Assembly: GCF_001186125.1 (NCBI RefSeq)
Contig: NW_014040444.1
Coordinates: 112,646 to 152,309 of the forward strand
Direction of reading: 5' to 3'
Origin: Sphaeroforma arctica JP610
Lineage: Eukaryota
Length of the DNA: 39,664 bases
Part shown: in pieces, positions 458 to 31,963 of the stretch
How positions within the stretch are numbered: position 1 is the first letter of the stretch
Layout: every line of letters starts with the position of its first letter
Translations under genes and position numbers: made by a program
Notes under the pieces: model-generated
What the model was told of the DNA's origin: nothing
The model's input: the letters and a program-made list of their open reading frames with translations, nothing else
Databases searched by the model: none

Positions 458-580
458 CAATATATATATATATGTATGTATGTATGTATATATATATATA
501 TACATATATGTATGTGTATGTATGTATGTATGTATGTCTGTATATATATGAATATATAATTTTATGTATATATATATATG
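221..580. repeat. Intronic (TA)n/(TATG)n/(TG)n compound microsatellite
   Basis: Directly visible. Similar tracts occur at about 3920-4170, 5970-6070, 7040-7170 and 7326-7390. Confidence 0.95.
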
Positions 581-632
581 TACATCCCTACATCCCTCTC
601 ACTTTGTACGTATTGTCCTGGTGCTCATTCAG

Positions 633-3600: not shown

Positions 3601-4114
3601 ATATATATATATATACGCGTAGAATGTATACAAAATATCTTCGATTTATGACTCTGAGCAAGATACCATATCCTGTCACCAGACCCGGCGACTAAACATC
3701 AACCACGGCGAGATGAGTGCATTGATCGACAACCTTATTCTGCCGGGGATTCAGAACCACAACACGTTTATACGTGAGCAAGCTATCCGTAGCCTGGGTC
3801 TGTGCTGTGTAATTAACCCGGAGTTCGGACGAGACTATCTTCTTCTGCTGCTACAGGTTGCTGAGAACGATGGCCCCCGCATTCAGGTGCGTCGGGTATA
3901 GTAAAAGCTTTACAATACTGATATATATATATATATAAGAATTTGAATTTGAATTTGAATTGATGCATATAAATGCATTTAAATACATATATATTTATAT
4001 GCATATATATGCATGTATGTATTTGTACATGTACATGTATATATATGTATGTATGTATGTATATATGTGTGTGTGTGTATTTGTATTTGTCTCCATAGTG
4101 TGTGTGTATGTTTA

Positions 4115-4159
<45 letters not shown>

Positions 4160-5972
4160 ATATATATATATGTTTTATTTGTATCAATTTGATTATGTTC
4201 TACTGTGTATGTTAATCTTATCTTCGTTCTTTCAATTCTCTATATTCTTACTCACAGCTCACTGCGGTGAAGACTCTGTTTGATCTGCTGCTGGTATATG
4301 GTCCCTTAACGTTAGGCGTATCATCCGCGCACGTAGAAAGTGATCGCAAGCGAGAGCAACAAGCCGATGTTATTAGAGAGTCCATGAACAATATGTCGCT
4401 CATGGAAAACGACCTAGAAGCTCTCGGTATGGCTATGCGTATTGCACATATTTGTGCATGTGTATTATGCATATATGTTTTAATTTGTAAATGGATTTCA
4501 TGCATATATGTAAATTTTTGCATATGAGTTTGATGCAAATATGTAAATTTGTGTGTAAGAGTATTATATGTTTTTGTAAATTTGTGCACGAGTATTATGC
4601 ATATATGTAAATTTGTTCGTATGAGTTTTATGCATATATATATATTTGTGTATATGAGCATTAGTCATATATGTGAATTTGTGCACTTTTGTTAAGCATA
4701 TATGCAATTTTGTAAATATGAGTTATATGCGAATATGTAAATTTGTGTATACGAGTACTATGCATATATGTAAATCTCTGCATATGAGTATTATTCATAT
4801 GTGTGATTTTCCGTATACAAGAGTTATGCATATTTGTATATTTGTACACAAGTATAATTCATATATGTAATAATTTGCTCGAGTATTTTGCATATATGGA
4901 TCTTTCCGTATATGAGTTTTATGCATATATGTATATTTGTATACGAGTATTATGCATATATGTATATTTCCGTATTTGTATATTGCATATATGTATATTT
5001 TCGTATACGAGTGCTATGCATATATATATATATTTCCTTATATATACACCTATAGGTATATCAGTAGACACAATCGCCTGTGTGGTTACTATCATATGAA
5101 GCTAAGCACACGCACCAACCTGCCCACATGCAAACGCACGCGTCACTGTACGTATGGAATGCAGACGACTATGCCGAGAATGTGCCGGAAACAGAGTTTC
5201 AGAATTATCTGTGAACACAGCGATCAAAACATACAAGACATAGATCATGATTTCGTTAATGTTTTTGCAGAGATAGTCAAACTGGTACGCACATGCGTTT
5301 GTACCGATACATGTCTATACGCAATTTGAATAGTTCCTAACTCACCCACACCCACACTCACACCCACACCACACCCACACAACATCCACGCATACACATC
5401 ACTGCACATGCGGAGCGGAATAGAGCATATCCAAATATACGTTAGACACATCAACAGGAGGGGACACAACAACGATCATGACATGCATTCCCATCCTCTT
5501 CATATTCTCCTCAGCCGCGCTAGTGCTAAGTGTGTGCACCGGTTACACATGCGTCTATACTATACCAAGGCATGTCTGTGCACAACCAGTATATTCAATA
5601 TCACACCCACACCCACACTCACTCTCACTCTCACTCTCACATTCACACCCACACCCACATCGCTACACGTGCACAGGAGACAAAGACACCGGCGAGAATG
5701 AGTCAGACACAGAAGCTACAGTGGATACAACGATCAAGACTTACATTCCCATCCTGTTTAATCTGTTACAAAGCGACACTGCCGAGATGCGCACCGTAGC
5801 CGCGGAGGGGTTTGCGAAGCTGTTACACACTAATCACTTGGCCAGTCACACCGTGTTTGCTGCGTTGATGGTGCTGTATTTCAATCCCATGTCTAGCGAC
5901 GACCAGAGGTTACGACAGGTATGAGTTATGGTGCGCGTAAGTTAGTCACCATTTGTATCGATACACATTATT

Positions 5973-6015
<43 letters not shown>

Positions 6016-6361
6016 ATATATATATGTGTGTGTGTGTGTTGTGTGGGTGCGTATTTGTATATATATAAAGATGTATGTGTGCGTATGTGTATACTAAAGT
6101 ACCTTCCATACAGTCCTGGGCGTGCTCTTCGCTGGCATTGCATTCGCATTTACGCTGTCCATTACGATGGTATTAAGAACATAATGAGTTATATTGCTCT
6201 ACGCTAACTTGCATATTGTACGTTTTTTTTTTAACCATAGAGTGCCTGTGCGTGTTTTCTTCAGCGTTTAGCACCTCTTTCGTACCTAGAACATCCTTTT
6301 CAATATTCTATAGTTCACGCACTGGTTCATGTCAACAAATGGTATCTATTACACGCAATTC

Positions 6362-6397
<36 letters not shown>

Positions 6398-7325
6398 GTG
6401 TATTATTATATTATTATATTTATGTGTATATATGCTTGCATATCTACAATACAGTGTCTGGGCGTGTTCTTCCCTGAGTTTGCATTTGCCACAGCGCGTC
6501 CGGTGGCCGATAAGTCGCTCGCACACCAGGCCATCATCGAGCGGTCTTTTCTGCAAATCATGAACACATTACTCGACGCTCCTCGACGGTCACCTCTCTA
6601 TGAAGGTACGCTTTGTATCCGTGCACATAATTGTGAGTGTGTTTATGTGTCTGTGTGTTTGTACTTGTACGGTGACGTTGGCCTGCATGTGTTCTTGTGC
6701 ATGCGATCATTCCTGTACGTATTGAACACACTGCTAGAGTCTCCTATACGGTCGCTTTTATTTCAAGGTACGCTTGAATACGTGTATGTGTAATTGTATG
6801 ATGGGTTTTGGCAATGTGTTGTGTGTGTTTGTATGCGTGATCATTCCTTCACAGCATTAATAAGGACTTATCGGCGGACGCCTTTTCACGAAGTAATTTT
6901 GGTCGATGTGTGTGTGCTTGCCTCTAGTTGCGGGTATTCCTGTATATAATGAATGCCTGCTGGAGGTCATTGACGGGACCTCTTGGTATTTGTATACGAC
7001 TGTTCAAGTGTTGATAATTGGATGCGAGTTCATATTATATATAAATATGTGTGTGTGTGTGTCTGTGTGTCTGTGTCTGTATGTATGTATGTATGAATAT
7101 ATGTATATACATATGTATATGTATGTATATATATATGTATATTTGTTTTTATGTTTATATGTATATGTATAAATTGAAATATGACTGTTGGCGTGCATTC
7201 TAATTGAACGGCTGTTGGCGTGTTGATGACTGCCTGTCAACGTTTACCCGTGTAGTGCATGCACAATATTATGTACATGTGTGTGTGTGGACGTGGTCAT
7301 ATCTGCACATCATCATGACGTGAAC

Positions 7326-9824: not shown

Positions 9825-10312
9825 AGAATTAATGGATATATGAGCTATTAGTCAAAATATAGTGCTAACATGCCTCTTAGGCACTGATATTGGATGTCCT
9901 TGAGCAAATGTATAACGGTTACTTTTAAAGAAAATTGTATGATATAGACATACAAACCCTGAATTGTTTATGAAGTGAGATAGGTATAGAATAGATGAAG
10001 TATTGTTGATGGAAACAATTGAATTGAGGTTATATATATATATATTTATATTTATCTATATATATATATATATATATATTTTATATTTATATATATATAT
10101 ATATATATAACATAATATACATTATATCTTCCCAAAACGACACTCAACATATAATATACGTTTATAGTAATTATGGTTTCTACCCTTTTATGATATGGTA
10201 CTTAAACTACCCCTTCAGACTAGTATAATTGCTTATATCTATTCTTCAATATCGTAAATCTGCTTAACAATCCGTAATTAGATTTGTATATAGATGTAAT
10301 ATTATGATACAA

Positions 10313-10511
10313 TGGTAGAGGTATTCCTTATCCATCGCCGTGAACTAACGCATCGTGTGTCTTCCATTATTGCATCACTCGCCCCGAGCTTCTTGCGGCA
10401 GTTCGACAATCTCAACTTCCCTTCAATTTTCACAAACCTCTCCAACGAATATGAAGCCTGCTGTACATGTAGACATAAAACTTTATCCAAATTGAAATAA
10501 ATAATATTATC
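10313..10511. repeat. Dispersed repeat, copy 1 (copy 2 at 30122-30285)
   Basis: GGTAGAGGTATTC...TCCATCGCCGTGAACTAACGCA...GCATCACTCGCCCCGAGCTTCT...GTTCGACAATCTCAACTTCCCTT...CTTTATCCAAATTGAAATAAATAAT occurs at both sites in the same orientation. Confidence 0.9.
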
Positions 10512-11245
10512 CCTATAATAGGATAAGATGAATGTGGTATTCATTAAGTCCCCTCTATATAAATTGTTTTAAGAGATGTCATTAAGATAGATAAAGATGC
10601 AATAAGTCTAAGTATATAGATGTCATTAAGATTTAGATAGATGGATGTCATTTAGTTATATAATCTTATCTAATCTTATTATAGTGTTATAGTTTATATA
10701 GTCATTGCCTTTATTTATCTCGTAAAACTCTAACAGTAAAACCTAACAGTACATTAACGAGGCTATAAGGTTTGATAATTATCTAAAAACATTCTTACCC
10801 CTCCCCCTCTAATAACTAAGTAAAACATTCTAACCCCCTTCTGGATAACCTTTAAAAGTATGACTATCGGCAATCACCGGAAACTTAAAATATTCGTGTC
10901 TTTAAATAAGAATACAATATCGACACTCTTGAAAATAAAATTAAAAAATTATTATATCAACATAATAAACAAATGAAACAAGAAAGATTTAGAAAGGAAT
11001 TGAAGGATTTCTGTGATGATTTGGAAATAGATAGAAATGATATTATAACTGAATTATTAAGAATTGGAAAGATACGAAATCCCCCAATAAAAATATTTTC
11101 TTGTCTCTATCTCATATATTGTTAGATCCGGGTTATGCTAGAATGAAGAATGGGGTCTATATCCGGATTGAAACGGATTGAAAGTTTTAATTTTAAAATG
11201 AAGGGTTTGAAACAACGGTTCAAAGAGATGAGGTTTTTGTATAAA

Positions 11246-12832: not shown

Positions 12833-13667
12833 TCTTGATATGCATCTTCAGAAATCGACACTCATCTCGTACCTGGAGACGTGCGCATTACTAACTTATC
12901 TCATGCGCCATCAGACATTACAATGAACTTACCTCTCTCCCGAACAGGCCTGAAATGGTTGCACCATCAAGCACTTCCCTACCCTCACTTTCAGACCCAG
13001 TTGACACATACACTTTGAACTCTAACATTGACACACAGCTTAACTTAGACTTAGACATTATCAACAACGATAAAACACCCTCACACTATCTCAGTACCTT
13101 TGTGCCTGTGTATGTGACACCATCAGAACGACAAACTAGTAGTGTGACTAGTAGTGTAGATAAAATGACACAAACACAAGGAACAGAACGTGTTAAACAA
13201 AACGCATTTACTCAGACCACCCAAACACCAATAGTACGGCCTGAGTATATTGAAGCATATGGTGTTCGATGGGAATGGAAGGTGGTCAATGCAGATACAC
13301 GTCCGGAAGAAAAGCAATCATGGAAGGTCATCGCTAATAACGAGACCTTCGGTCCAAAAGATGAAATTGCGCGGGATACAATCACTTACTTCTATGCCAT
13401 GTTTCCTTTAGGCAATCTAGTAGAGACGTGTGCACTGGCGAATCTTTTGCTAGCTAAATGTAAGGATAGGAAGTATGGACATCCGTTGACGCCAGGGGAG
13501 CTATTGAGATGTTTCGGGGTCTATATGCAGTTCTTCTTCATTGATTTTAGCAAGCAGCCGTGCGGATTGTTGGCGAAGGCAGCAATGAGACCATGAGCAC
13601 CATCCGCCGTACAACTTTGGACGCTTTATGGAAGGGCAAAGGTTCGACGATATATTTCAGAGCTTGC

Positions 13668-14085
13668 TGTAGTCAAAACCGAGTTGCGCTTAGTCAAAAG
13701 TGTTAAGTCTGAAATAAGTGAACTTAGTCAGAAGTGCCGTTATGAACGGCGCGTCTGCTGTATTTATTAATCACGTTCCTATGTGGAACGAGATTTTCTC
13801 TAACAACGGCAGATTGTGTAAATCTCCGTATCTAATATTATGGTCTCCTAGTTACTAAATAATGATGATATCTGATGAGTCATCATTCTTTCTCACTAGC
13901 TTATATATTCTGATATCCAGTCCGGTCCTCGGGTCCGTTCTTCAATAAAATTCCTTTAGGTCCAAGCCTCTGATTCGGTCCTAAATATTTTCCTTAGGTT
14001 CGGCCCTCTGGTCTGGTCCTAAATTGCTCTTGTCAGTCCGGTCCTCTGGTCCGGTACTAAATCCCCGTCTACGGTACTTTGTCCA
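13668..14085 (-). repeat. 3' LTR of family A element (418 bp)
   Basis: Aligns to 23542-23616 plus 24383-24688. A short purine-rich tract (GGCGGGG on the minus strand) lies immediately inside it. Confidence 0.92.
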
Positions 14086-15781
14086 GCCCCGCCAAGTTGA
14101 GTGCTGGTATTTTTCAATGAATATTTAAGCCATAATTCTGTGATAATTTATGAATAAAAATATAAAGGTAATATCCTATACGGACCGTGGGGTTATTGCA
14201 TCGTTAGAATTTACTATTACTAATTATTACATTTGTCGTAAATAATTGCGGCTAAAATATCACTCAGTCAACTGTAAACAGACTAAAAGTACCTGTTTTG
14301 TATTAAATTAAAAAAATTACGTGCTATAAATATACCAAATGTAATAAAAAATATAATCATATATAAACTATTTTAATATTTTAATTTTATACATCAAACC
14401 CGTGGTCGTAAATATACATTCTGTCGATTTTATACTTTATAATTATGCCTATTTAACAGTATATTTATTACATGACGACCCATGTCTCAAACTTTTGTCG
14501 ATAATTAGTTGTTAATTGGTCACTAATTATAACAGCCTATGTGTCTTGCACAACGTATTGTCTTGTATTATATGTATATCCTAATTTGGCACATGTCTCG
14601 CGTCTGACTATGTATACCCGGCTGTCGAATCCGTTAAAATGTTTTAGACAATGCGTTACAATATTCCGTATTTAAACTCCGTGTACATATGTAATACGTT
14701 TGACGTTTTGTGAATATTATGTCAACCGTGGTTGACTTTTCTATTGTCTACGTAGTAAGAAATCACCGTAAAACAAGTTTCCATATGTTCTTCTGTAGTG
14801 TGTGTGTAATGGTTCATTAATTCCTGCATAAAGGAGAGTATTTGTGGCACTATGCCCGATACTGTGATGTGCATGTGCGTGAAGCGGATACAGCCGCTAT
14901 ATATTACAACCAAGTATCTGTCTTTCTGTCTTTCTGTTCTTAATTCATCCATTTATTCCGTTTCAAAGATGTATTATATATATTATCCTATTCGTCTTGT
15001 GGTGTATTTAGCGTGTATGCATGTTTGGGAATGGCTGTATAATTGTGTTATCTTTTAGATTGATTTATAGTATTGTCTGTAATGGTATATGACTATAGAT
15101 ATACATTTACTTTAATATCTGTACGTGTACGTCTATACCCCCATTCTTGTATGAAAACTGTCTATCTAGTGGGGATTGTGTGTGTCATTTTGTGTTGCAT
15201 TGATTGAACTTCCCTAATTTGTTAAATTTAATTGCCATGTGTGAAATTTGTGTGATTCTATGACATGATATCCTAAGTATAGTGTGTTCGCCTCTCGTCT
15301 GCCTATGGTGCGGGTGGTTACCATTATGCTATATATTGACTCTAATAACATTGTACTATCCTTTTTCTTCTATCATCACAGGGATGACCGCGTGCGACAC
15401 CCCTATTTGTCATGCCTACCATTAGTGGTTATCAATGACAACTCCTTGTTGTCCCTGACCATATCGTAGTATACCATTAAACCTACTTACTCTGGTCTGC
15501 TCTTGTTCTTAATGACTTAAAGTGTAATGTATGAGATGCGCGTGGTGTGATGTCCTCATGGGCATACTTGAGATGGGTACGCTTTCCGTGACTCCGTCAC
15601 AGCGTCTTACATGTTCCGCCTGCCACACCACTAGGATTACGCCTGTTCCGTCGTCTACGTAATTGTTCCGCCTCCTGCGTAATAATGTTGTACACGTTCC
15701 GCCGTGTATACACATGATATCGTTTGGTACGTAATAATGCTATACAAATCAACATCGCTCACGGCGACTATGCAACACGCT

Positions 15782-16080
15782 TGAGGCTGCGGGTTCCTAC
15801 CGAATCTCAAGTGTTCGCGCAAATTTCAATGCGGCGTGTCCTCAGGGTTGCTCCCCTCTGAGTATGACTCAACAGGGTGCTCGCCTGTACTCTCAGCATC
15901 TAAATAACCATAAGGCCTATTATGTCAACTGTGATGATGCCATGTATCACACTAGTGAGGCTGCGGTTGCTCACCAACTTCAAAGTTCTTATACAAAGTT
16001 CAATGCGCCGTGTCCTCAAGGTTTCTCGCCACTGAGCTAGAGCCAACAGGGTGCTCGCCTGTACTCTAAGCATATAGATA
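15782..16080. repeat. Two diverged copies of an about 125-bp unit in the retrotransposon 3' non-coding region
   Basis: 15782-15906 and 15956-16080 share TGAGGCTGCGG, TTCAATGCG.CGTGTCCTCA.GGTT and CAACAGGGTGCTCGCCTGTACTCT.AGCAT. Confidence 0.85.
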
Positions 16081-16566
16081 TACTTGCGACTCACCACCAC
16101 CGCTCGTGTTTAGCGACGTTTGGCGTCGTGTGTTTGGTTTCTATGTCTGTTATATTGAGGTTACACGTATATTATTATGATACCAGTGTATACCCTTGTT
16201 CGTTTATGTATGCGTGATGTCTTATAGTGTATATGATGCATCAAATTACTTATATCATTTCCATGTTCTATTGTTGTCGAATATGTATCTTGTCTGTCTA
16301 TCGTAATATATGTAAGCAATGTGTCTTCTAATAGTGATCTGTGCAGCTCGTGTATAATATATATTCGAATACAGGTGTCTATTCTATATATAGCAGCTGT
16401 TATTAAAAGAAGATTACTCTTCTAATATCTACTATCGGTTATATGAGTATGTTGTCATCACCCATGCACGCAGCAATGACGCAACCTCGGCCAGACATAC
16501 CATCGACCCAGGCTGCTCTAACCTTGTACCAGGCGTCGTTGTCGTCGGCTCTCGCGCGTTTGAATC

Positions 16567-16705
16567 CGTTTTCGATATGCGGGCATGACGTTGGGATCGT
16601 CAAAAGCATCGGCTGTCACACATGCAGGAGATCCTTCCAACCAACGTACCAAATATTCCGATTGTTGAATCGCCTCATTATGACGGTGCGATATGATTTG
16701 TCGAA
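16567..16705 (-). other. Chromodomain at the integrase C-terminus (in a shifted frame)
   Basis: The alternative frame reads FDK/IISHRHNEAIQQSEYLVRWLEGSPACVTADAFDDPNVMPAYRKR, matching the I..HR...EYLVRW.G.....V....F chromodomain pattern. Confidence 0.75.
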
Positions 16706-18016
16706 ATGTCGAACCTCTCTCTCTTCATAGAGATTCATCCAGTGGTGGTTTCGTAGCCCGATGGACAAGCCAATAATCTCCACATTCACGGGTCGGTCTC
16801 TGAGCTCAGGCGGCTTGCTGTCATCCTTTGCTCGTAGATGGTAACTCTGATTTTCCCGACTATGAATCACGTACGGACCAAGCGGTGATTTCATGACTTT
16901 GGTCGTCGCTCCCTGTGCGAGTATCATGACGTCCCCCGCCTTAAATTCAATCAAATCAAACTTACTCATCTGATCCGTAGCCTCTGCCATGGCATCAGTA
17001 TACTTAATTGTTTTCTGATGAAGTTTTGGTAGGATAGTTTTCTCCAAATCATCCAGCTTCATTAACCATGCATCATTCGTAGTAGGAATATGACCAGGTA
17101 AGTTATCAGTCATGCTTACAAACGGGACATGTCGCCGACCAAAATAAACGCTGAATGGTGCTGACTTGTGACGTCGTGATATCCGAAGGTTCTGGTATAA
17201 CATAGTAAACGGTAGACGTTCATTCCACAACTCCGGACAACCATCACACAATGCGCTCACACATTTGTGGATTTCCTTATGTCGGCGCTCTGCCGCGCCC
17301 AATGTCTGCGGGCGGTATGGTTGGGACGTCTTGTGTGTAATGCCCAACGCTCGTGTGATGGATTTGACAATATTGTTTATAAATTCGGTGCCCTCGTCAC
17401 TTTGAATCTTACGAGGAAATATATGCTCACCAAACACTGACACTAACTCTGCCGCCACTGTCTTTGCATCCTTCGCAGGTATCGCCCGTAGAATAGAGTA
17501 ACCCGACGCCACATCAAGCACATGTAAAATAAATTTGTTTCCTTTAGTGGGATTCCTTTAGTGGATGTGACCGCCATAGGATTGATATCCATTTGTATGT
17601 GATCCCAGGGGTACCGAGCGGTAATATTCATTAAAGGATGAAATCCCTTCTTCATCGTATCGTTTCCCCAAGCATGTGCGACATAATTTGCGGACCTCTT
17701 CTGTGATTGGAAGCATCTGCTCCCAGTTATGCCCATCATCCCGCATCTGTTGTACTGTAACTGCTGGGGCCGGATGTCCTTGTTCATGAAATTGCCATGT
17801 CAACTTTACACGACGGTTCGCTTCCTCGTGCCTTGGATGATTCATCACTGTAGCGCCCGCACATATCTCAGGAATTTGTGCAGCAATCTGTCGCGTTCGT
17901 TTCGTCATCACCGGTTGTGCCCAATTTCTTGATAACGTGTACTAGCGTCTTCACACACAGGTACCTCCAAGCCTAAGTCACACCAAAACGATGGATTGAC
18001 TTTGTACCCAGATGGA

Positions 18017-19202
18017 GGGCCAATACGTACCACAATAGTATGCTCGCACGGGTATTTACTACAAGCCTGTGAGCCATGCTTCAAAAATGTGTGAGCCGTA
18101 CGTGGGATAAGTAACGGGTCCACTTGCATCATCGACAGAAATAACGCAAACCATGGTGCGCGTGTGTTCAACGGTAAACATATTGCTGCCGACGCCTTGT
18201 CCTGCAACACCTTACGCAACACCTTATGTATAAGACGCCATGGTGTAAGTTTCGGTCTATCAAGGCGATATTAACGCCTTAGAGTAATTAAACGATTAGG
18301 TTAAGTCTAGGTATAGTTAAATTCGAAATAAATAAACGAAATGAGTCTTGTAGTAAAGTTAGGTATGCCTCGTGAAAACAGCAATACTTTGAGGGATTGT
18401 GAGGGTGAGACGTTGCCTTTATATAATCCTCCCAGTACTGTTTTCGCCGAAGGGATTTTATTTAGTGTTTCATTGTCGCTCTAATAGAAACTACAGTATG
18501 TTTCGTTAGGGCGAATCCGAGAGACTCATAAAATCCTATCTTGAAAATATTTGAAAAAATACTCCTGATGTCCATAGTTTTTGCATTAACCAATAACTTG
18601 CCACTTATCAAGAATTACCGACTTAGCCTTCATCAGACTGGCACATCTGGTTGGCTGAACGGAGGATAAACTAAGCAATGCTAATAGTCCTTAGAAACCT
18701 ATGTTCTGTTGAGCCATCTCGCTATCGAAGTATTCAGGTATAAATAGATTTGGAAAGTAAATATAGTTCTATTAATAGAACTAGACTAAATCTTATTTTT
18801 TGTATTTTACTGGGGCCTTTTAATGGCCTTGTCCAAATATCTGATACGTAAAATGGAAAAGGTATTAATTAATAAAACCGTTGAAACCCATTTAGGAAAC
18901 TTAAGTTCCTCGTAATATTAAGAGTACGTTTATAGTTTACGTATTGCTTAATAGTACGTTTATAACATAGTCTAATGTGGAGGCCCGGCTATTACAATGG
19001 TGGCTTCATCCATGCGTTGTATTTGCCCCAGTCAAACTCAAACGCCCCGCCATCCTTGTCGTACGACCAGTGTTGGCGAAGCTGAGCGTTATGGCTCGAG
19101 GCAAAGGCGTCGACGTCGTTTGGTCCAAAGTGTTTCTGGATCTAGTCAAAGAAATCCGGAGTTTTTCTGAATCTAGTCAAAGAAATCCGGAAACAACTTC
19201 CA
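18017..19202 (-). pseudogene. Dam-like N6-adenine DNA methyltransferase domain inside pol, interrupted by a solo LTR
   Basis: After removing 18244-18996, one TSD copy and an about 31-bp tandem duplication at 19131-19191, it reads WKLFPDFFD*IQKHFGPNDVDAFASSHNAQLRQHWSYDKDGGAFEFDWGKYNAWMKPPWRLIHKVLRKVLQDKASAAICLPLNTRAPWFALFLSMMQVDPLLIPRTAHTF...TIVVRI. This shows the SAM-binding DxFAS..N motif, AF..DW, and an (N)PPW catalytic motif. Confidence 0.85.
18244..18996 (+). mobile_element. Solo LTR, family B (753 bp), inserted in pol
   Basis: Termini TGTAAG...ATTACA. 4-bp TSD ATGG at 18240-18243 and 18997-19000. Homologous in reverse complement to 23617-24378. Strand is arbitrary. Confidence 0.9.
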
Positions 19203-21220
19203 ACATGACGTATAGAACACCGCGGAGTAGTTGATATCCGCCGTGCCCTCATGAAGACGACTCCACATGTCTGGTAACTTGTTCAGTTCTCCAGGTACAT
19301 GTGTAATAGTAAAATTGAACTGTGCAATAATATGATGCCATCGTTGTAACATACTATTCAGCTTCAGCTGAACGTTCATGTATATGAGAGCCTTATGGTC
19401 TGTGTGTACAGTAAACCGCTGTCCAATGAGATGATCATGAATGTGAACCAGAGCATAGGTAAGTGCTAATAATTCTTTCATCGGGGTTGCATATGTCTGC
19501 TGTGCCTTGTTGAGAGTTTTTGAGAAGAACGTCAGGTAATGTTTGCATCCGTCAATCAATTGCAACAATGCGCCACCAATCCCATAATCGCTTGCATCCG
19601 TTTTTAACTCAAATGGTACACCATCAACAGGAAAGTTCAACCTGACTGCCGACATGATAGCCTCCTTCATCTGATCCCACGCCAATTGATGTTCTGGCTT
19701 CCAACGATCTCCAATGGGCTCCTTTGGCTTAAGTTTAGAAACGGTTCGGAGTGGAGCTACCTTGTGTGCAAAGTTAGGTAGATGCTCATGTAAGAAGTTT
19801 GCTAATCCTAACGCAGAGGCAATATCCCTTTGACATCGTGGAACTGGCCGGTCAATTAAACGTTGCTGTTTCTCATGATCCACGTCAATGCCTTTAACTG
19901 ATCTCTTCTTTCCCAGGACCATCACCTCTCGCACCGCAAGGTGACATTTCTTTTGATTAAGTTTGAAGTTATTCTCCGTCAGGCGTCAAACGACCTCTTG
20001 AACCGTAGCAATGTGCTCCTCGTAGTTGACTGACGCAATTATTAGGTCATCAACATAGCATTGCACGTCCAGTCCCGCCATCAAATTGCTGATTGTGCAT
20101 TGAAATTATGACGTGAGTGTCGTCAATCCAAAGGGAGCCGACGTAAACGAGTACTGCTGACTATCCCATGTAAACGAAAACATGTGCTGCGAATCGATGT
20201 GCACCGGTAACCGATGGCATGCGGCCGATAAGTCCAACGTGGTATAGTATCGCTTGACCTTCAAGTTGCTAATGATCTCGTTGACCTTCGGAAGCGTAAA
20301 CTGATCGCCCGGAATAAGCCGCAAGTCCAAGCACACGCGCACCTTAATAAGTTCACCCGACGGTGTGAATGACGGTACTGCCAACAAAAAAAGTTAACAA
20401 TCGACACCGATGTTCGACGATTGGTGACCAATTCGTGTTCCCATTTGAGTACTTGCTTCGTTACATGTGGTTTGTATTCGTCAGATACAAAATTTCTTGT
20501 CTGCCGACGTAAGCGCAGGAGTTTATCCCGAGGAATAGGAAGTGACACCTTACTACCCGGGAGTGTGCAGCGAGCGGCATCCAGAATAGTGTCAGTAGCA
20601 TCCAGGTATTGGCGTAAGCGTGCGCGTATATCATCTGGCTCGGACAAGTCTGGGGCCATTCGAAGATTGATTGGTTCCAGTAGTTTATCCATAACATTAC
20701 GATTGATCTCTAGAAATGGAGATACCAATCCGGTTAAGCCTAATCTCAACTCACCCATAATATCCATACTTAGTATTATATCAATGTTATCCGGTAGGTT
20801 CACAAGTTCAAATGTACAACCCTCAGTAGCAGCTGACCCGTACTGGACCTTTGTTGCTTGTGTTTTGCCCAAACGTGAAGTCCTGAAGGCTTTGTCCACC
20901 AAGTATATGTAACTATCCTTGGCCGGTGGCGTAATAGAGAGGTGTGCCTTAACCGCGGATGCCTGAGTGATGACTGGACGATTGGCCCCCGTGTCAATAA
21001 GGGTGCGCATGTCATGTCCGTACACTTGTAAAGTAACATATACACGGTTGTCAGTAGGAAACAATTTATCTTTTACTGCAAATATTCTTGTTGCCGTACG
21101 ACCAAATGACATGCACATGTTCACATCAGGCACCCCAGCCTGACAATCCGAGTCTGTTCCAACTTCCCAGCCGTCGGGTGTCTGCTCTTCTTCCATCAAC
21201 TCATCGTCACTCTGCACATA

Positions 21221-23443
21221 CTACTCATCGACCAAGTCATGAATGTGCGTCACTTCAGTCACCCCTGTCTCGGTGGTTGGTTGATCAGGCATAATATCAC
21301 CGTCCACTAAGTTAACACGAGGTCGGAAATTAGTACCCGATCCGTGAGCCCCGCGTGTCGATGTGCTTGTAGCCGATGTACGTTGAACTGTAGCCTCACC
21401 ATTTTGTGTGCGGCTACTTGTGCTAGCCTGGACCGGTACCCGTTGTAAGTTAGGACAACGACTTGCATGTCCTGGTCCCGGCGGAATGTTTTGCTCACAT
21501 GATCGACAACGAACCCGTGGGTTCGACGTAGACGGTGCATGCGGGATAGCGCGTGTATTCGCCTCCGTACGCAAATTTGAACGTGATCGCGAGTTCCCCG
21601 GAATTCGTCGAGGTCGCGAAAACTTGTCCTGGCGATTTTCTTCTGCTTTGTCAATGTTCACACGGGATATATCACGCATCTTCTCAGACGAGTAGTTTCG
21701 CCACTGTGGATACATTCGAAGAGTATCCCGGTAGTACGCTCCACCTGCAGCTTGGCGTATAATATTAAGTATACCATGGTTGCGGTGTACCTGTAGAGGG
21801 TTCTCATACTGTCGCATTTCCATGAACTCCACCTGGCGTTCAAAATCACGAATCTGAGTATCAAGCGGTACCGATGGCTTCAGCTTCATGCATGCTAATA
21901 CCTGGCGGTATGCATTATCCTCCAGGTCTTGTTCTTGTGTACGTACAATAAATGCAGTGGCATCTTCAAATGTCATAGACTGTAATTTTTGCTCGTTTTC
22001 CACAATAAAATCCAATAGCGCCTTAGGAGCCCCTTCATGCTGTAGAGCTCGGTGTAAGCCCATTAGCATGTGAATCGGCTCTAGCTTGTGGAATCGCGCA
22101 TTCTTATGCGAGTTCAAGATAAAAGCATGTAACTGTATCTTCTGCGGATTGTCCAAATAATAATTGCCCTGTGGGTTGGGTGGCCATTCCTTCGGTGTTC
22201 GTTTGTCGACCGTTATTGAACACGTCTTCAGAGTCTCATTCGACGCACGAATTAGACCCTGTAGCGCACGCGCATCGTCTATGCGTCCGTCTGCTTCTGC
22301 ATGCATCATCCGTTGGGTCAGTTGAAAACTTGCATTTTCATCTCTGCCGCTGTCGATGCAGTAATACTAGGCTCCGTAATTTCCGAGTCTTTATGACGTT
22401 TCACTGCCTGTGGGTCTTCCAAGTAGCGGTCGTGATGAACAGGAAGGTGTTTGCGGTATGGAATCGTATCAATAGGGACATTCGCCGCATCCTGAGAATT
22501 CTCTTGTAACTCTTCTGGTGAACGTGGTTTACGGTGACGTTGCAACTTATCACGAAAGTGGTTCGTTGCCACGTGACTCTGGTTCATCTGTTGCTGCGGA
22601 GACTTCATTACTCTGCGGAAGGCACCAAAGGAACGCTTCGCCGACGACGATAAATTCCGAGGAGTGTCCATGTCCAAGTGTAAATCCGCAGGTTCCAAAA
22701 AAAATTCTATCAGGCGACTTCACCAAAGTTTTCTATGCCTGATACCAATCCGGCCCATTAGGCGGTATCTCATCAGGGATCGGAATTGTTTTTGCCCGAT
22801 TTTGAGCGTTCTTCAACAACCGCTATCTACGAGTGACATGGACATTATCACGAGGAGCCACCTGAGGTACAGGCTTCGTACGTCCAATTCTACGTTTCAC
22901 CGGGCTAATTTGCTTCATGTTGTTAGCCCCGTTGTCAGGTAACTGGATGGTGGGTGTCGGCCCTGCCTGCATTGGGTATTGAGGAGCCTAATGTTGTTGC
23001 ACTGTTGGCACGACCTGAGGCTCCGAAAAATCGTCATCCACTTTCGCCTGGTCCGAGTCCTGGGGCGTAGATGTGTCAATACCCGCCAGTGACAATTCAC
23101 GGAGTTGGTGGAGTTGCTCTTGAACGAGAGTAATCTTTTCCGTGGCTTCCTGCACATGCATCAGCGCATTCAAGTGTCCCTCGTGATCAGAAATCCACTC
23201 TGAGGATTGTCTAAGCCTGTCCAAGGTTTCGATTGAGAACAGGGCCTCCGATAGTAAACGGGTCAATTCCACATGGATTTCCACTTTCTTATCGTCTTCG
23301 GATGCAGGTTCTTTGGCAAGTGCTGTCTCCACCATTTTGCGTAGCACTGTTAACCGGCGAAGTGCTCCAATCAACCATTTCAGCAGCTGGTCACAGGCTT
23401 GCTTACCCACCGTAGGAAACGGTCTAGGCTTGGGTCCCGTCAT
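21221..23443 (-). pseudogene. gag-like ORF1 (about 740 codons, broken by stops and frameshifts)
   Basis: Starts about 100 bp after the 5' LTR. ORF pieces 22988-23443, 22318-22698 and 21221-22309. C-terminal Zn-knuckle variant CRSCEQNIPPGPGHASRC. In frame with pol across one TAG. Confidence 0.75.
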
Positions 23444-23541
23444 CGTTGAAAAAATAAATAAATAAAACTAAGTTGCTTCTTAGTTGATTTAACCTTCTAA
23501 GAACGCAGTGTAATAAATACAGTAGTTCGGTCACTTAAAAA

Positions 23542-24688
23542 TGTAGTCAAAACCGAGTTGCGCTTAGTCAAAAGTGTTAAGTCTGGAATAAGTGAACTCA
23601 GTCAGAAGTGCCGTTATCTAATAGTTGGGCCTCCACATTAGACTCTATGTTATAAACGTACTCTTAAGCAGTACGTAAACTATAAACGTACTCTCAATAG
23701 CACGAGGAACTTAAGTTTCCTAAATGGTTTTTAACGGCTTTATTAGTTAATACCTTTTCCATTTTACATATCAGATATTTGGACAAGGCCATTTCATTAA
23801 AAGGCTCCAGTAAAATACAAAACATAAGATTTAGTCTAGTTCTATTAATAGAACTATATTTACTTTCCAACTTTATTTATATCTGAATACTTCGGTAGCG
23901 AGATGGCTCAACCGAACATAGGTTTCTATGGACTATTAACGTTACCTAGTTTATCCTCCGATCAGCCAACCAGATGTGCCAGTCTGATGAAGGCTAAGTC
24001 GGTAATTCTTGATAAGTGACAAGTTATTGGTTAATGCAATAACTAAGGACATCAGGAGTAAAAAAAATTCTTCTTCTAAAGATAGGATTTTATGAGTCTC
24101 TCGGATTCGCCCCCAACGAAACATACTGTAGTTTCTAATAGAGCGACAACGAAACACTAAATAAAATCCCTTCGGCGAAAACAGTACTGAGAGGATTATA
24201 TTTAGGCAATGTCTCAGCCTCACAATCCCTCAGAGTATTGCTGTTTTCACGAGGCATACCTAACTTTACTAAAAGTCTCATTTCGTTTATTTACTTTGAA
24301 TTTCACGATACTTAGATTTTACCTACGCGTTTAATTACTTTAAGGTGTTAATATCGTCTTGATAGACCGAAACTTACAGTTATGAACGGCGCGTCTGCTG
24401 TATTTATTAATCACGTTCCTATGTGGGACGAGATTTTCTCTAACAACGGCAGATTGTGAAAATCTCCGTATCTAAGATTATGGTCTCCTAGATACTAAAT
24501 AATGATGATACCTGATGAGTCATCATTCTTCTCACTAACTTATATATTATAAAATCCAGTCCGATCCTCGGGTCCGTTCTTCAATAAAATCCTCTTAGGC
24601 CCGAGCCTCTGATTCGGTCCTAAATATTTTCCTTAGGTTCGGTCCTCTGGTCCGGTCCTAAACACCCGTCTACGGTACTTTGTCTACA
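23542..24688 (-). repeat. 5' LTR of family A element, interrupted by a family B solo LTR
   Basis: Matches 13668-14085 once 23617-24378 and one GTTA copy are removed. Confidence 0.92.
23617..24378 (-). mobile_element. Solo LTR, family B (762 bp), inserted in the 5' LTR, in opposite orientation to the copy in pol
   Basis: Reverse complement of 18244-18996. 4-bp TSD GTTA at 23613-23616 and 24379-24382. One terminal base is mutated (TCTAATAG for TGTAATAG). Confidence 0.9.
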
Positions 24689-26093
24689 TTGCAGTTTGCC
24701 GAGAAAACAACAGACGACATCAATCCCAACTATCAGGATCATCTCTGGTCGCCTGTAAACGGATTCGTAGACGCAATCAACGAGCAAAAAGACCACACGA
24801 TCACGGCGAGTAGCGACATATATGTTGATGAGTGTATGAGCCGCTGGTATGGCTTAGGAGGACAATGGTTAAATACTGGTCTTCCACACTACGTAGCCTT
24901 GGACAGAAAACTGGAAGCTGGTTGTGAGATATGGACTAACTGTTGTGGCCATGGTCAATTCCTCATAGAACTCGAGTTAGTGCAATCCACAGTAGCCAGT
25001 GCACGCGAGCACGAAGACGACCACCAACATGGCACCGCAACAACCTTACGACTCGTACAAAAATACTTTGGGACCGGACACGCAGTGTAAGGCTGCTGCA
25101 CTACGTGCAAAAGGCCCTCATTTCACAGGTGTTATGAAGACAGCTACTAAAATGTTTCCGATGAAGGTGTTGAGCAGGGAAGAGTTGTCTGGTTGTGAAG
25201 GGCACTGGTCATCGATGGTGACTACAGATAAAGATGACAACCAATACTCGGCTACAGTGTGGTCAAACAGAAATCGAAAATACTTCATCAACACGTATGG
25301 CACAACCAAAGAGGGCAGAACAATATCACGTAAAAGGGTACAGAACGATGGAAACAGTGTTATTTCAAAAGAAGTGCGCTGTCGACAACCTCAGCTAGTC
25401 AAACAGTATTTTTCCTTTAGTGATATTGTAGGTAGGCACAACAGATACCGTCAAGATACACTCAATATAGAAGAAAAAAACTAGATGTGAGAAGTTGGGA
25501 AAAAAAGAGTTGGTACAACACTGCTTGCAATGTGTATAGTAGATTCATGGCTCCTATACAAAGGTACACCCTCACCAGCAGAAAGGACTCCAGTGGACCA
25601 GCGAACGTATTGTCAGATACTTTTCAAAGAGCTCATGAACAATACATACGAAGCACGCGTCACACGCTCGATAACAGCTACTGTTGCGGTGCGACCAGAA
25701 GCGACTTTATCGGGTATTGGGACACACGCAAGCCTCATTGAGGAACTAAAACGTGAGAAGAGGAGGAATAAGGATGGGGTGGTTGTTTTCGGTCTACGAA
25801 CCGACCGAAAGAACTGCAAATATAAAGGCTGTGCGAGGAAGAAAGTTCGAATAGGAGACCAGTGCAGTATTTGTCACCAGGGTATACACAAGGAATGCTT
25901 CATAGCGCATATTTACGAGTCACATCCAGACGAACGAGGTTAAAGAAGACGTGTTCACAGATACGTGCACATGCGTGCAATACATTCAAGCTGATCAGCT
26001 GAAAAGTATAAGATATTTTTATAATAAACGTTTGATTCATATATATTTAGCCGTATATATACTCAATTTATTCATTTTACTCGAATTTTGCAG

Positions 26094-27856: not shown

Positions 27857-28977
27857 GTAATTGAATATAGTTATAATATAATATAACTTTGTGATTATTT
27901 ATTGACATAAATACACATGCCACTCAGCACTATTGATTTATTTAAATCACAACGGCAGCAAGTAGATACATGGTGATGCAGGAAATAGCAACGCCACAGG
28001 TTGTCACTGCTCTTAATAAGCTTCGTTCACTTCTTTCACGGCAAATGGAACTCTACATAGTTCCATTACGTCCGTGATTGATACTTCTTTGTTTAAGCCT
28101 TCTACTAAATTTGTAGTCTTGTGATCTCATCGATTTGCTGTTTGTATATTGTATATACATGCAACTATATCACATTGTACTTTATAAGCATTTTATATAT
28201 TATCATGTGCATATATTGTTATATACTATCGCTTAAACTGACTCAGCCAATCATTTCCTCAATAAATGATCGCGCAGGCTATCGAGTGTCGTCGGCTAGC
28301 AATATGTTTGTAGCGGGGTTGATACCTTTTTTTTGCCTGTTTGTTGCCTGTTTGTTTGTGGTAAGTACTCGTTCAATAACTGTATCTGAACGGTCTCCCT
28401 GAATGCGCAGGGAGACGTCGCGTCTTCATTAGATTAAATTATAGCTATTAGATTCTCCTAATGAGTCATGTGTTCGTCCCAAACGGATCGAATCAAAAAC
28501 CAGGTTTATCAAATCCTAAGAAAACCGTCATAAAACTAAGTTTACCCTGTATATGGGAATTCCGACTACAATCTCCCCAAGCTGAAGCACTACACACTGT
28601 TACTGTGACAGGTTGAAAAAAATAGGAAGAATATACCCATATATGGGTAGCTTGCTGGCATTTATCCTCTGAGAGCTAGAGGGACCTAAGTATACGGCTC
28701 GAGCGCACCGTTGTTCATGGTAAAGTGTATTTATGCATATCCCCGGAGTCGAAACTTAAGTTCAAAAGTCGTAAATTCTCGTTGGAAAGGCATTTATCGA
28801 AAAGAATACAAGTCAAGCAAACAGCAATCAGGGATCACAGCAATCAAGAGATAAGTATGGGTAAATTAAGTACAACAATTTACAAGGCAAGTATATATTT
28901 TTCTTTATTTTATTGTTGAAGTATTGTTCTATTGTTAAAGTGTTGTTCAGTCAAAGTTTAAATACATGGGCATTGTT

Positions 28978-29482
28978 AACGATGTGATGAACTTAAGTTC
29001 GGTACTTTTGACATCATGTTTTTTTTTCAAGCGGGGTGATAATGTTTTAATACTTGAGGCCAAAGTCAAAACCTTGGCAACGGATGCAAATCTATTAACT
29101 CTACCGCCCTGAGGGTACTTTTCTATCGTTTCTACCACATCCTGTGTGTCCTCTAAAAATTCACATTTGTATCATTTTGAGGTCCTTCGTCGCCCAAACC
29201 CATACCAATATAAAGTCTATTTATGCATGGTCAACGATGTGATGAACTTAAGTTCGGTACTTTTGGCATCAGAAAAAATATTGTTTTCAAGCGAGGTGAT
29301 AATGTTTTGATACTTGAGACCAAAGTCAAAACCTTGGCAACGGATGCAAATCTATTAACTCTACCGCCCTGAGGGTACTTTTCTATCGTTCCTACCACAT
29401 CCTGTGTGTCCTGTAAAAATTCACATTTGTATCATTTGAAGTCCTTCGTCGCCCAAACCCATACCAATATAAAGTCTATTTA
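28978..29482. repeat. Tandem duplication of an about 250-bp unit
   Basis: 28978-29223 and 29233-29482 are near-identical (AACGATGTGATGAACTTAAGTTCGG...CCCATACCAATATAAAGTCTATTTA). Confidence 0.92.
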
Positions 29483-30121
29483 CGGCCGATTTCAGTTTTT
29501 CATATTTTCGTTACTCTGGAATGTCTCAAAAACATTCTTCAACATGGGGTATTTCTCTGCGGTTTTCTTTCCTTTCTTCTATCATTCTTCTGAACCTCGT
29601 CTTCCTTTTCCTCCATTTGAATTGGGGTGACTTTCAAAATATTTATAGGGGTGGGGTCGATATTAATGGCTTTATTATTTTCTTACTTACTACAACAACC
29701 ACAGGGTCGGCATGATTACCACGGCATATGGACTCTCCATGAACGTCTCGGGAGCTTCCTTCTCCTTGAACAACAGACACCAATTGATTTCCATCCAGTA
29801 CTAGTCGATAGATTGATGTTCCCCATACTCCGTCTTGTCACTTTACTGAAGAACTATTTCCAGATTTCGGTCAATACCAAATCTTCGAGACTTCTGGTAC
29901 CACATATGATACTTCCCGCTATGGCTAGCCAGGATATCCCAAATACATCAGTTGTGAGGTGTGGTATCGGACAGCTCCCAACTTCGCTCCGAACCGGAAT
30001 TGCGGATGACAACCTCACCCTCCTTGGTAAATATCCCAGACCGATTCAGGTCATATTACCATTACAAGTGTGGGCCAGCTTTATTTCACGCAACGGCACA
30101 CAGGTTATAGTTCTCACCCAA

Positions 30122-30285
30122 GGGTAGAGGTATTCTGTATCCATCGCCGTGAACTAACGCACAGTATGCCTTCCATTGTTGCATCACTCGCCCCGAGCTT
30201 CTCGCGGCAGTTCGACAATCTCAACTTCCCTTTTGAAGCCTGATACATATTAAACTTTATCCAAATTGAAATAAATAATGTTATC
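30122..30285. repeat. Dispersed repeat, copy 2, with an internal deletion relative to 10313-10511
   Basis: Same-orientation match to copy 1. A stop-riddled intronless reading frame appears to continue on the minus strand to about 29690. Confidence 0.88.
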
Positions 30286-31405
30286 GCTATCCCTTTTTCG
30301 GCCAATCGAATATGTGTCTCACTCTTCTTCTTCAATTTTTCATCATACTGTCCCTCGAAACTTCGTTTTGGTCTCATATAGTTCTTGTGATTTTTCATTT
30401 CTTTTTGTCTCTGGCCTAATTTTTTGTGGGTCATTGTTAATTTGGGGACTGTCATTCTTTCTCTTCTTTTTATTATAGATGTGAGGTTTTTAAAAGAATT
30501 GAAAATCAGTATTGTTTAGATTAAATATCAACCACACGGTGGCGGCCGACCTTCTCTCTCTCTTCCTCTTCTGTTCCTTCTTCCTTTCCCGTCGTGCCTT
30601 TTGTTTCTCCGCCTGTCTCACCCCATAATGGTCTCCCAGTTCAGTTAATAATACTCTCTCGCATATAAAGCATTTCTCGTTCTCTTGTAGTATGTTTTCC
30701 AATCAGGATAGTTATTCGTAAAATTTATTTCAATTTCATTTTCAACTGTTTTATTTGATATCTCATCGTTTTATATTGAAATTATAAATTTTTATTCATG
30801 TTGAAGATATATAAAAGTAATTAAGGTTTATCCAGTGGTGATATGTATGAGCAAAATAAAACCTCATATTTATGAAATTATAGCCGACATTGTGTTTAAC
30901 GATACAATTATGGTCTTGTTGTTTACTATCTTCATTGTTCATAGTTATAATAAAATAAGAACCCTTTGTCCCGTATCTGTGGTGTTTGTTATTCACATTC
31001 GACCATAACATTGCACCCTATTAAATACCTTGTTATAAGTAAAAATGGTGTCCGATGAAGACATGCCGGATGAGATATTTTGTCGAGAGGGTGTAAAAGT
31101 GCCCGTTTAAAGGCGATAAGTTAGTAAGAAATTATCCATCGGGATTGAATTTATTGTTGTCGGGACTATATGACCGGTTGCAACTGTCCCCGTGTTTGTT
31201 ATACTATCACACTCAATCGCATGTGCCTCAACCAAATCGGTCGTTAATTCCGGGATCGATATATACCCGTTGCAGCAACACCATCCAGCCGACTACAAAA
31301 TTCCGTGAGAATAGTTGAAAGTGCTTCCGTCGGTGAGTAATTTTTTACAACATAGTCGTAAGCATCTACAAAACCCCGGTAGTTATAGAGACAAACTCTC
31401 CTTTA

Positions 31406-31963
31406 TCAAAGATCGGTAGGGATTTGATTTTTTTGAAAACCTCTAAAAACTCCCATACCAGCGCATACGTCTTCTTCGCGGTGCTTATCAACTCCAAACA
31501 TGATAGCTGTGGCTAGCGCTCTACAGTCCTGATAGGCCGTTTCATATAGCGCGTCCATCTCCATTTCACGCCTTGCCTCTTCTGTTTTTGTAGCGTCGAG
31601 GGAACTTTTAGCCTCCTTCACATTCTGTCGTATAGATTTTAAAGCCTCGTCGGCTTCTATATCGAATTCAAGCTGCTTTAACTTCTCCTCGGCGGAGTTG
31701 ACTGTATTATTGACACCTTCAAGGGTTTCCAGTTTCGTCCTTAAGTGTGAATTCAGATGTGAAAGTTCCCTAGTTGACGACATTGTATCTGGTATTCTGA
31801 TTGCTCGATCGGTAGGGGTTTTTTGTTGTTGTTGAAAACCCCTAAAGACTCCCATACCAGCGCATACGTCTTCTTCGCGGCGATTCTCAACTCCACCCAT
31901 GATAGCTGTGGCTAGCGTTCTACAGTCCTCATAGGCCGTTTCATATAACGCGTCCATCCCCAT
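31406..31963 (-). CDS. Intronless hypothetical protein (possibly a pseudogene): two copies of an about 55-aa repeat flanking a coiled coil
   Basis: The unit EEARREM.MDALYETAY.DCR.LATAIM.GV...REEDVCAGMGVFRGFQ...PTD is present twice (DNA about 31410-31582 and 31808-31982). Confidence 0.5.
   Translation of the reverse strand: MGMDALYETAYEDCRTLATAIMGGVENRREEDVCAGMGVFRGFQQQQKTPTDRAIRIPDTMSSTRELSHLNSHLRTKLETLEGVNNTVNSAEEKLKQLEFDIEADEALKSIRQNVKEAKSSLDATKTEEARREMEMDALYETAYQDCRALATAIMFGVDKHREEDVCAGMGVFRGFQKNQIPTDL

Follow-up and report, generated by a model that had tools for sequence, protein, structure and literature searches.

A decayed Ty3/Gypsy retrotransposon of Sphaeroforma arctica with a Dam-like domain placed between its RNase H and its integrase

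Known retrotransposons with Dam-type domains

Dam domains within Ty3/Gypsy elements, termed DAM-LTRs, were described by Fernandez-Moreno et al. (bioRxiv 10.64898/2026.05.21.726589), who defined an ichthyosporean lineage with members in Pirum, Abeoforma and S. arctica. In S. arctica, DAM-LTR insertions exceeded other LTRs in both 6mA and RNA, and in A. whisleri they showed 6mA enrichment and higher expression. DAM-LTRs and AMT1 co-occurred in 9 of 13 species, and DIRS elements retained a methyltransferase domain in hosts lacking AMT1. The model proposed in that preprint has 6mA put on RNA-DNA intermediates, followed by recruitment of, or maintenance by, AMT1. Expression in an E. coli strain deficient in Dam did not raise 6mA. 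The Nanopore data cited there are deposited as GEO GSE331346. Our literature search returned no title pointing to a Dam-bearing LTR element earlier than this preprint. A first-pass annotation of the locus described here, made from the sequence alone, had left open whether its architecture was published and had suggested that 6mA might mimic active chromatin. Architecture, species and 6mA-mimicry hypothesis are all already in print there.

The locus lies in a 39,664 nucleotide stretch of DNA (hereafter the window, in whose positions all coordinates are given) from S. arctica JP610, a single-celled relative of animals, and is almost certainly a decayed copy of a Ty3/Gypsy DAM-LTR in which a Dam-like domain separates RNase H from the integrase. 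It shares with the ichthyosporean DAM-LTR lineage the Ty3/Gypsy organisation, the Dam-like domain and the host S. arctica, and its RT and Dam sequences cluster with named proteins of Abeoforma and S. arctica. It differs from the published description in having a sub-threshold chromodomain-like tail after the integrase, which other members of its clade, Abeoforma P0031 among them, have as well, and in being an apparently dead copy with a KPPW motif. The main text of the preprint gives no position for the Dam domain of this lineage, which in the window follows RNase H and precedes the integrase.

DIRS1-type retrotransposons have a homologous methyltransferase domain directly after RNase H, their pol being ordered RT-RNase H-MT (PMC2685390; PMC5890265), as the first-pass annotation had stated. 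Unlike them, the window element has direct-repeat LTRs, a target site duplication (TSD), a protease and a DDE integrase, yields no recombinase match, and lacks inverted or split direct terminal repeats; its RT falls across a split with a support of 100. The Chlorophyta DAM-chromovirus-like elements and the EpiLTRs resemble it in combining Dam and a chromodomain in one Gypsy Pol (bioRxiv 10.64898/2026.05.21.726589). We found this combination, with strong Pfam Chromo matches, in P0044, P0053, P0064 and P0128, but these four proteins were outside the RT clade of the window element. In addition, the chromodomain of the window clade is shortened and without a third cage aromatic, and the window element has no cytosine methyltransferase match. 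The locus is one more, dead, example of a DAM-LTR and its additions are modest; what the present analysis adds is the divergent chromodomain-like tail in the clade, which a Pfam screen misses, and a predicted fold of the Dam-like domain that is nearest to an RNA cap methylase.

Structure and decay of the element

The Dam-like domain is carried by an approximately 11-kb Ty3/Gypsy LTR retrotransposon on the minus strand (13668-24688). It is bounded by a 5′ LTR (23542..24688, -) with TGTAG..CTACA ends and a 3′ LTR (13668..14085, -), the latter with a short purine-rich tract before it on that strand. These family A LTRs are direct repeats with 95.5% identity over 378 aligned bases, and the element is flanked by a 4-bp TSD, TTGC, at 24689-24692 and 13664-13667. 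A solo LTR of another family, B, is nested in the 5′ LTR (23617..24378, with the 4-bp TSD GTTA). It is inverted relative to a second family-B solo LTR at 18244-18996, with which it is 92.6% identical. No TGG-type primer-binding site was found after the 5′ LTR (23510-23541, -) and no tRNA gene within the window; priming may be unusual in this element, or the site may have decayed.

The gag-like region (21224..23467, -) is broken into several frames (22991-23467, 22321-22719 and 21224-22366) and was recognised by its position and sequence, including a knuckle-like motif, C-x2-C-x9-H-x3-C. Since it had no Pfam match at E<=0.01, its identity as gag is something we infer. An aspartic protease and the start of RT follow at 20264..21220 (-; Pfam gag-asp_proteas, E 3.2e-6), then RT and RNase H at 19242..20393 (-; RVT_1, E 3.9e-4 for a fragment; RT_RNaseH, E 8e-28). 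The RT has a YVDD motif and two in-frame stops, and the RT-RNase H region is 46.8% identical to that of the protein P0002 over 389 columns. The integrase (16619..17941, -) is frameshifted and has an HHCC zinc finger and a D,D-35-E core, the spacing being taken from the translations (Integrase_H2C2, E 0.0029; rve, E 6.5e-10). According to the Pfam matches, Pol is thus arranged in the Gypsy order of protease, RT, RNase H, HHCC finger and integrase core. None of the 61 element ORFs of at least 55 aa matched a tyrosine recombinase at E<=0.01, and none matched a cytosine methyltransferase at that threshold.

With two RT stops, several frameshifts, two nested family-B LTRs and a lysine at the position of the catalytic asparagine, the window copy is predicted to be dead.

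About 2.4 kb (14086-16520) separates pol from the 3′ LTR. It includes a 132-nt direct repeat (15775-15906 and 15949-16080, 76%), which overlaps an antisense ORF (15738-16037) with a repeated CPQG.SPL motif and without a Pfam match at E<=0.01.

The Dam-like domain in the window

The Dam-like domain occupies 18004-19202 (-), between RNase H and integrase, in three pieces. Piece 1 (19176..19202, -) is in the RNase H frame and begins with WKLFPDFF at 19202. Piece 2 (18997..19141, -) contains the Pfam Dam match and ends at the catalytic-motif region (KPP). Piece 3 (18004..18243, -) was recognised by its identity to P0001 and to the S. arctica protein SARC_07150. Between pieces 2 and 3, within the catalytic motif, lies the 753-bp family-B solo LTR (18244..18996, TGTAA..TTACA), with the 4-bp TSD ATGG at 18240-18243 and 18997-19000. 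A 31-bp tandem duplication (19130-19160 and 19161-19191, 29 of 31 bases alike) breaks the frame upstream of it.

The first-pass annotation had placed the start of the domain about 20 codons after the end of RNase H, close to the 18 codons that we counted from the RNase H end motif to WKLFPDFF, and every motif in the series it named was found on the minus strand in the order given. It was likewise right about the position of the solo LTR and about the interruption that this LTR causes. Its reading of two fragments rejoined in one frame by excision was wrong: there are three pieces, and excision of the solo LTR by itself leaves the frame interrupted, because the tandem duplication splits the N-terminal part.

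Piece 2 matched Pfam Dam (PF05869) with E 1.1e-5, though its 25.6 bits fall short of the curated cut-off, which is 28.1. It also matched PHROG 111 DNA methyltransferase with E 0.008. Piece 3 had neither a Pfam nor a PHROG match. It was 47.5% identical to the Dam region of intact P0001 (735-814) over 80 aa (E 8e-18) and 51% identical to SARC_07150. When compared with P0001, pieces 2 and 3 each scored better than all of 500 shuffled sequences, and for piece 1 four of the 500 shuffles were equally good. Piece 1 is supported instead by a match with SARC_07150 across the junction of RNase H and Dam (12 of 29 residues identical). The C-terminal piece had also been used in a word-seeded search, weak evidence that later searches superseded, in which none of 10 candidates reached E<=0.01. 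The N-terminal piece, searched against PDB sequences, matched a lectin (E 0.0012, summed over seven weak repeats) and a sialidase, and these were rejected as chance matches.

The catalytic motif reads KPPW in the window copy, interrupted, and departs from the [DNS]PP[YFW] of active N6-adenine DNA methyltransferases. In the corresponding column of 151 relatives, asparagine was present in 118, lysine in none, another non-asparagine residue in 31, and a gap in two. The D-x-F-A motif and both prolines were 96-99% conserved among the relatives. Sister contigs were sought in four public runs from four studies (24 were listed), with three contigs per run. In all four runs they skipped 757 bases, corresponding to the solo LTR and one TSD copy. 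One sister contig, a divergent one with stops, encodes W-M-N at the catalytic motif when translated by hand, a reading that comes from the 40 of 1046 differences listed. The lysine in the window copy is therefore likely a product of decay.

Relatives of the element

A search with the RT-RNase H region found 19 longer proteins. P0001 and P0002 were the closest (48% identity), and both are intact single ORFs of 1288 aa with the order protease-RT-RNase H-Dam-integrase and an NPPW motif. Their Pfam Dam matches had E 4e-15 and 2e-14. No Dam was present among the precomputed domains of the other 17 proteins.

The Dam domain of P0001, searched against 1.84 billion representatives, had 2620 matches at E<=0.001. 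Among the named matches were at least four S. arctica and at least three Abeoforma whisleri proteins. We scanned with Pfam 30 of the 150 listed matches, picked as top-ranked or long. The order RNase H, Dam, integrase was also present in P0027, P0029, P0031 (from Abeoforma), P0032, P0038 and P0039, among others. NPP[W/F] was intact in all nine clade proteins checked, and SARC_07150 has CPPW. A metagenome scan gave seven confirmed loci, all of them short prokaryote-type Dam genes (32-53% identity in the best segment), and no retrotransposon loci were found in it. The Dam-like domain is a feature of the family and not a one-off insertion: the sister contigs, P0001, P0002 and other members all carry it. 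The first-pass annotation had suggested looking for an intact NPPW in other copies, and P0001, P0002 and the clade proteins have it.

Two other polyproteins, P0100 and P0107, are of the Copia type (RVT_2, copia gag) and carry a Dam domain whose NPPW is intact. This domain sits between the gag zinc knuckle and a Pol beta-barrel domain, and the Dam tree joins the two as sisters (100/100). The term "copia" is nowhere used in the main text of Fernandez-Moreno et al. (bioRxiv 10.64898/2026.05.21.726589), and our literature search gave no title on a Copia Dam. P0100 and P0107, known here as proteins only, are possibly an undescribed Copia DAM-LTR. P0052 and P0058 are Gypsy-like polyproteins with an endonuclease/exonuclease/phosphatase domain and then Dam (NPPW) upstream of RT, and with RNase H and an integrase zinc finger downstream of it.

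Phylogenetic position of RT and Dam

A quick RT tree was built from 70 rows, with rows covering less than 75% of the RT profile excluded. The references were database proteins classed as DIRS-like or Gypsy-type by their domain content only, not curated Repbase elements. The window RT fell on the integrase-bearing side of a split with SH-aLRT support of 100, apart from 36 Dam-bearing RTs without an integrase, which are the ones classed as DIRS-like. It clustered with other Dam-bearing elements, Abeoforma P0031 among them, in a clade of 11 rows (98). The Dam tree comprised 73 rows, namely classifiable or named rows plus four prokaryote-type sequences. In it, the window domain was sister to SARC_07150 (100/96), and a 94/79 branch placed the window on the side of the Abeoforma and other S. 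arctica rows. In both trees the ichthyosporean DAM-LTRs were represented by named Abeoforma and S. arctica proteins and not by the preprint's own sequences. The order of events cannot be read from the Dam tree, because its bootstrap values are unsettled and its root joins long branches.

Judged from these sequences, the RT groups with Gypsy and not with DIRS. The first-pass annotation had likewise assigned the element to Gypsy from its LTRs, TSD, Gypsy-type RNase H and DDE integrase; the RT placement and the missing recombinase match agree with that assignment.

The chromodomain-like tail

A divergent chromodomain-like tail, in a shifted frame, follows the integrase in the window (16521..16724, -). 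Alone, it matched Pfam Chromo with an E value of only 0.2. Against a profile of four unrelated retrotransposon chromodomains it scored 17.2 bits, and none of 2000 shuffles scored as high. Its AF2 model has three strands and a helix (pLDDT 71). All 41 rows listed by Foldseek were chromo or chromoshadow domains (best E 0.019), none at E<=0.001, and the best Z score was 4.8 (rmsd 4.6, 55 aligned). At these values the fold supports a chromodomain only jointly with the profile searches.

Divergent tails of this kind follow the integrase in P0001, P0002, P0027-P0029, P0031, P0035, P0038, P0039 and P0176. Searched as whole proteins, P0001, P0002, P0027, P0028, P0029, P0031, P0035, P0038 and P0039 had no Pfam Chromo match at E<=0.01. 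We then cut the tails by eye from 11 proteins: the window element, eight further members of the RT clade, P0035 (a row of the Dam tree) and P0176, a cluster-mate replacing the truncated P0032. The truncated P0033 and P0034 were excluded. At E<=1, 10 of the 11 cut tails matched Pfam Chromo (best 5.2e-7, values that cutting by eye inflates). A profile of the clade tails had 63 matches in PDB at E<=0.01 (best 6.5e-11, inflated in the same way). The best 60 of the 63 were chromodomain proteins, most of them by name. As a less biased check, the profile of four chromodomains from outside the clade recovered the tail when run on the complete Abeoforma P0031 protein (E 4.9e-7). It did not find the tails of P0001, P0002, P0028 and P0029 above 5 bits.

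The chromodomain is shortened in the clade, and the tails are without the third cage aromatic, a residue usually missing in group II retrotransposon chromodomains (PMC3350952). From these profile matches, a chromodomain is very probably present in the window clade. The ichthyosporean DAM-LTR lineage was described as lacking chromodomains following an hmmsearch screen at E 1e-5 (bioRxiv 10.64898/2026.05.21.726589). This description looks incomplete, since deeper searches detect a divergent chromodomain, including in the named Abeoforma P0031.

Fold of the Dam-like domain

We modelled the Dam domain of intact P0001, rather than that of the window copy, with AF2 (48-row alignment, pLDDT 94). The closest solved fold was PCIF1/CAPAM (PDB 6irx; Foldseek E 1.9e-5; Z 10.8, rmsd 2.9, 135 aligned), followed by the KsgA, Dim1 and Erm rRNA methylases. 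The top six Foldseek matches and the top VIA match were CAPAM, and after these mostly rRNA methylases. T4 Dam ranked lower (Z 8.2, rmsd 2.5, 104 aligned), as did E. coli Dam (Z 8.0, rmsd 3.1, 108 aligned). A sequence profile searched against PDB had only two matches at E<=1, both to PCIF1 (E 0.07 and 0.11). The model indicates a SAM-dependent N6-adenine methyltransferase fold of the Dam/DIRS type. The Dam-type domain called in the first-pass annotation is accordingly seen in the Pfam matches of the window and its relatives and in this predicted fold.

The NPPF motif of PCIF1/CAPAM aligns with the NPPW of the element. The two share 16% identity and differ in setting and size: PCIF1/CAPAM is a cellular enzyme whose crystal constructs have about 500 residues, and the element domain has about 140. 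Since the closest solved fold is that of an RNA cap methylase, the substrate may not be double-stranded DNA. A shared fold indicates the type of methyltransferase and not its substrate. No solved structure of the PF05869 family appeared in the structure searches, so PCIF1 may be merely the nearest solved structure. Iyer et al. (PMC4738411), in their treatment of DIRS1, place the DIRS1 MTases in the PCIF1 clade and judge them likely inactive.

Possible roles of the Dam-like domain

In intact members, the Dam-like domain would travel in the particle as part of Pol. There it would likely use SAM to N6-methylate adenine on the nascent cDNA of the element or on the RNA:DNA hybrid. After integration, host AMT1 would maintain the 6mA mark, and the chromodomain-like tail might help to choose insertion sites. 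We regard the identity of the element together with this mechanism, a particle-borne domain methylating cDNA or hybrid and AMT1 maintaining the mark, as the most likely reading, at about even odds. The domain order in the window, the intact single-ORF relatives, the intact NPP[W/F], the methyltransferase fold and the placement in the RT and Dam trees speak for it, as do the 6mA enrichment, the higher expression and the model given in the preprint (bioRxiv 10.64898/2026.05.21.726589). The negative E. coli assay, PCIF1 as the nearest fold, the 31 of 151 relatives with another residue in place of asparagine, and the likely inactivity ascribed to the DIRS1 MTases (PMC4738411) speak against it. The association of 6mA with DAM-LTRs is a correlation, and host AMT1 by itself could account for 6mA on expressed copies. 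In hosts whose transcribed genes are tagged by 6mA, a transposon-borne adenine methylase could label its new copies as active chromatin.

The domain could instead be a PCIF1/CAPAM-like RNA methyltransferase that acts on cap or near-cap adenosine in the genomic RNA of the element, with effects on its stability, translation or packaging and with DNA 6mA supplied by host AMT1. The CAPAM and rRNA methylase matches in the structure searches, the two PCIF1 profile matches and the PCIF1-clade placement of the DIRS1 MTases (PMC4738411) are in keeping with this, as is the negative DNA assay in E. coli (bioRxiv 10.64898/2026.05.21.726589). We nevertheless consider it unlikely: the sequence matches Pfam Dam, all seven metagenome loci were prokaryote-type Dam genes, and the resemblance to PCIF1 may reflect which structures have been solved, the fold saying nothing of the substrate. 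The modelled fold hints at RNA or hybrid substrates, which were outside the scope of the published assay.

It is similarly doubtful that the domain is a non-catalytic module binding nucleic acid or SAM, or a spacer within Pol, with no part played by methylation. The same negative assay would fit such a role, as would the presumed inactivity of the DIRS1 domains (PMC4738411), the replacement of asparagine in 31 of 151 relatives, the lysine of the window copy and the CPPW of SARC_07150. Against it stand the retention of NPP[W/F] in nine of nine clade proteins and, among the relatives at large, the 96-99% conservation of the D-x-F-A motif and both prolines. The W-M-N of the sister contig suggests that the window lysine arose by decay of this copy.

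In a different combination, the ichthyosporean DAM-LTRs would be unrecognised chromodomain-bearing elements whose PCIF1-like "Dam" acts in the particle on element RNA or on an RNA:DNA intermediate. We rate this as quite unlikely. An RNA or hybrid substrate of this kind would explain the negative E. coli DNA assay. If true, the combination would pair a particle-borne adenine writer with a chromatin reader that has a reduced cage.

A purpose other than seeding active chromatin is also conceivable, in which methylation of the cDNA shields it before integration from nucleases, deaminases or sensing. Such protection has been proposed by analogy for retrotransposon methylases (PMC5890265), and the domain persists in DIRS elements whose hosts lack AMT1. 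The co-occurrence of DAM-LTRs with AMT1 in 9 of 13 species and the higher 6mA of the insertions (bioRxiv 10.64898/2026.05.21.726589) speak against it, and we consider it very unlikely.

Finally, although the locus is a nest of insertions, the idea of a single insertion of a DIRS fragment into a Gypsy copy, or of a faulty assembly, is refuted to the point of being scarcely credible by the collinearity of the window with intact single-ORF relatives that carry Dam, by sister contigs that cross the domain without the solo LTR in four of four runs, by the same RNase H-to-Dam junction in SARC_07150 and by the lack of a tyrosine recombinase match in the 61 ORFs.

Surroundings of the element

The Gypsy element seems to sit within a piggyBac-like DNA transposon (12895-13667 and 24693-25940, +). 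The right side (24693-25940) matched Pfam DDE_Tnp_1_7 (E 1.1e-7); the left ORF (12895-13667) had no Pfam match and was assigned by position only. An ORF at 31409-32047 had weak coiled-coil-type Pfam matches only. Local duplications were present at 28970-29482 and 31411-31983, and a dispersed repeat pair (10310-10516 and 30119-30290) was 76% identical. Exons of the host condensin subunit G (Pfam Cnd3) were found at approximately 550-6800 (+), with introns rich in TA and TATG microsatellites, and one condensin-G exon in the window, too little to tell S. arctica from a very close Sphaeroforma species, was identical to S. arctica JP610 SARC_02521 in 75 of 75 aa.
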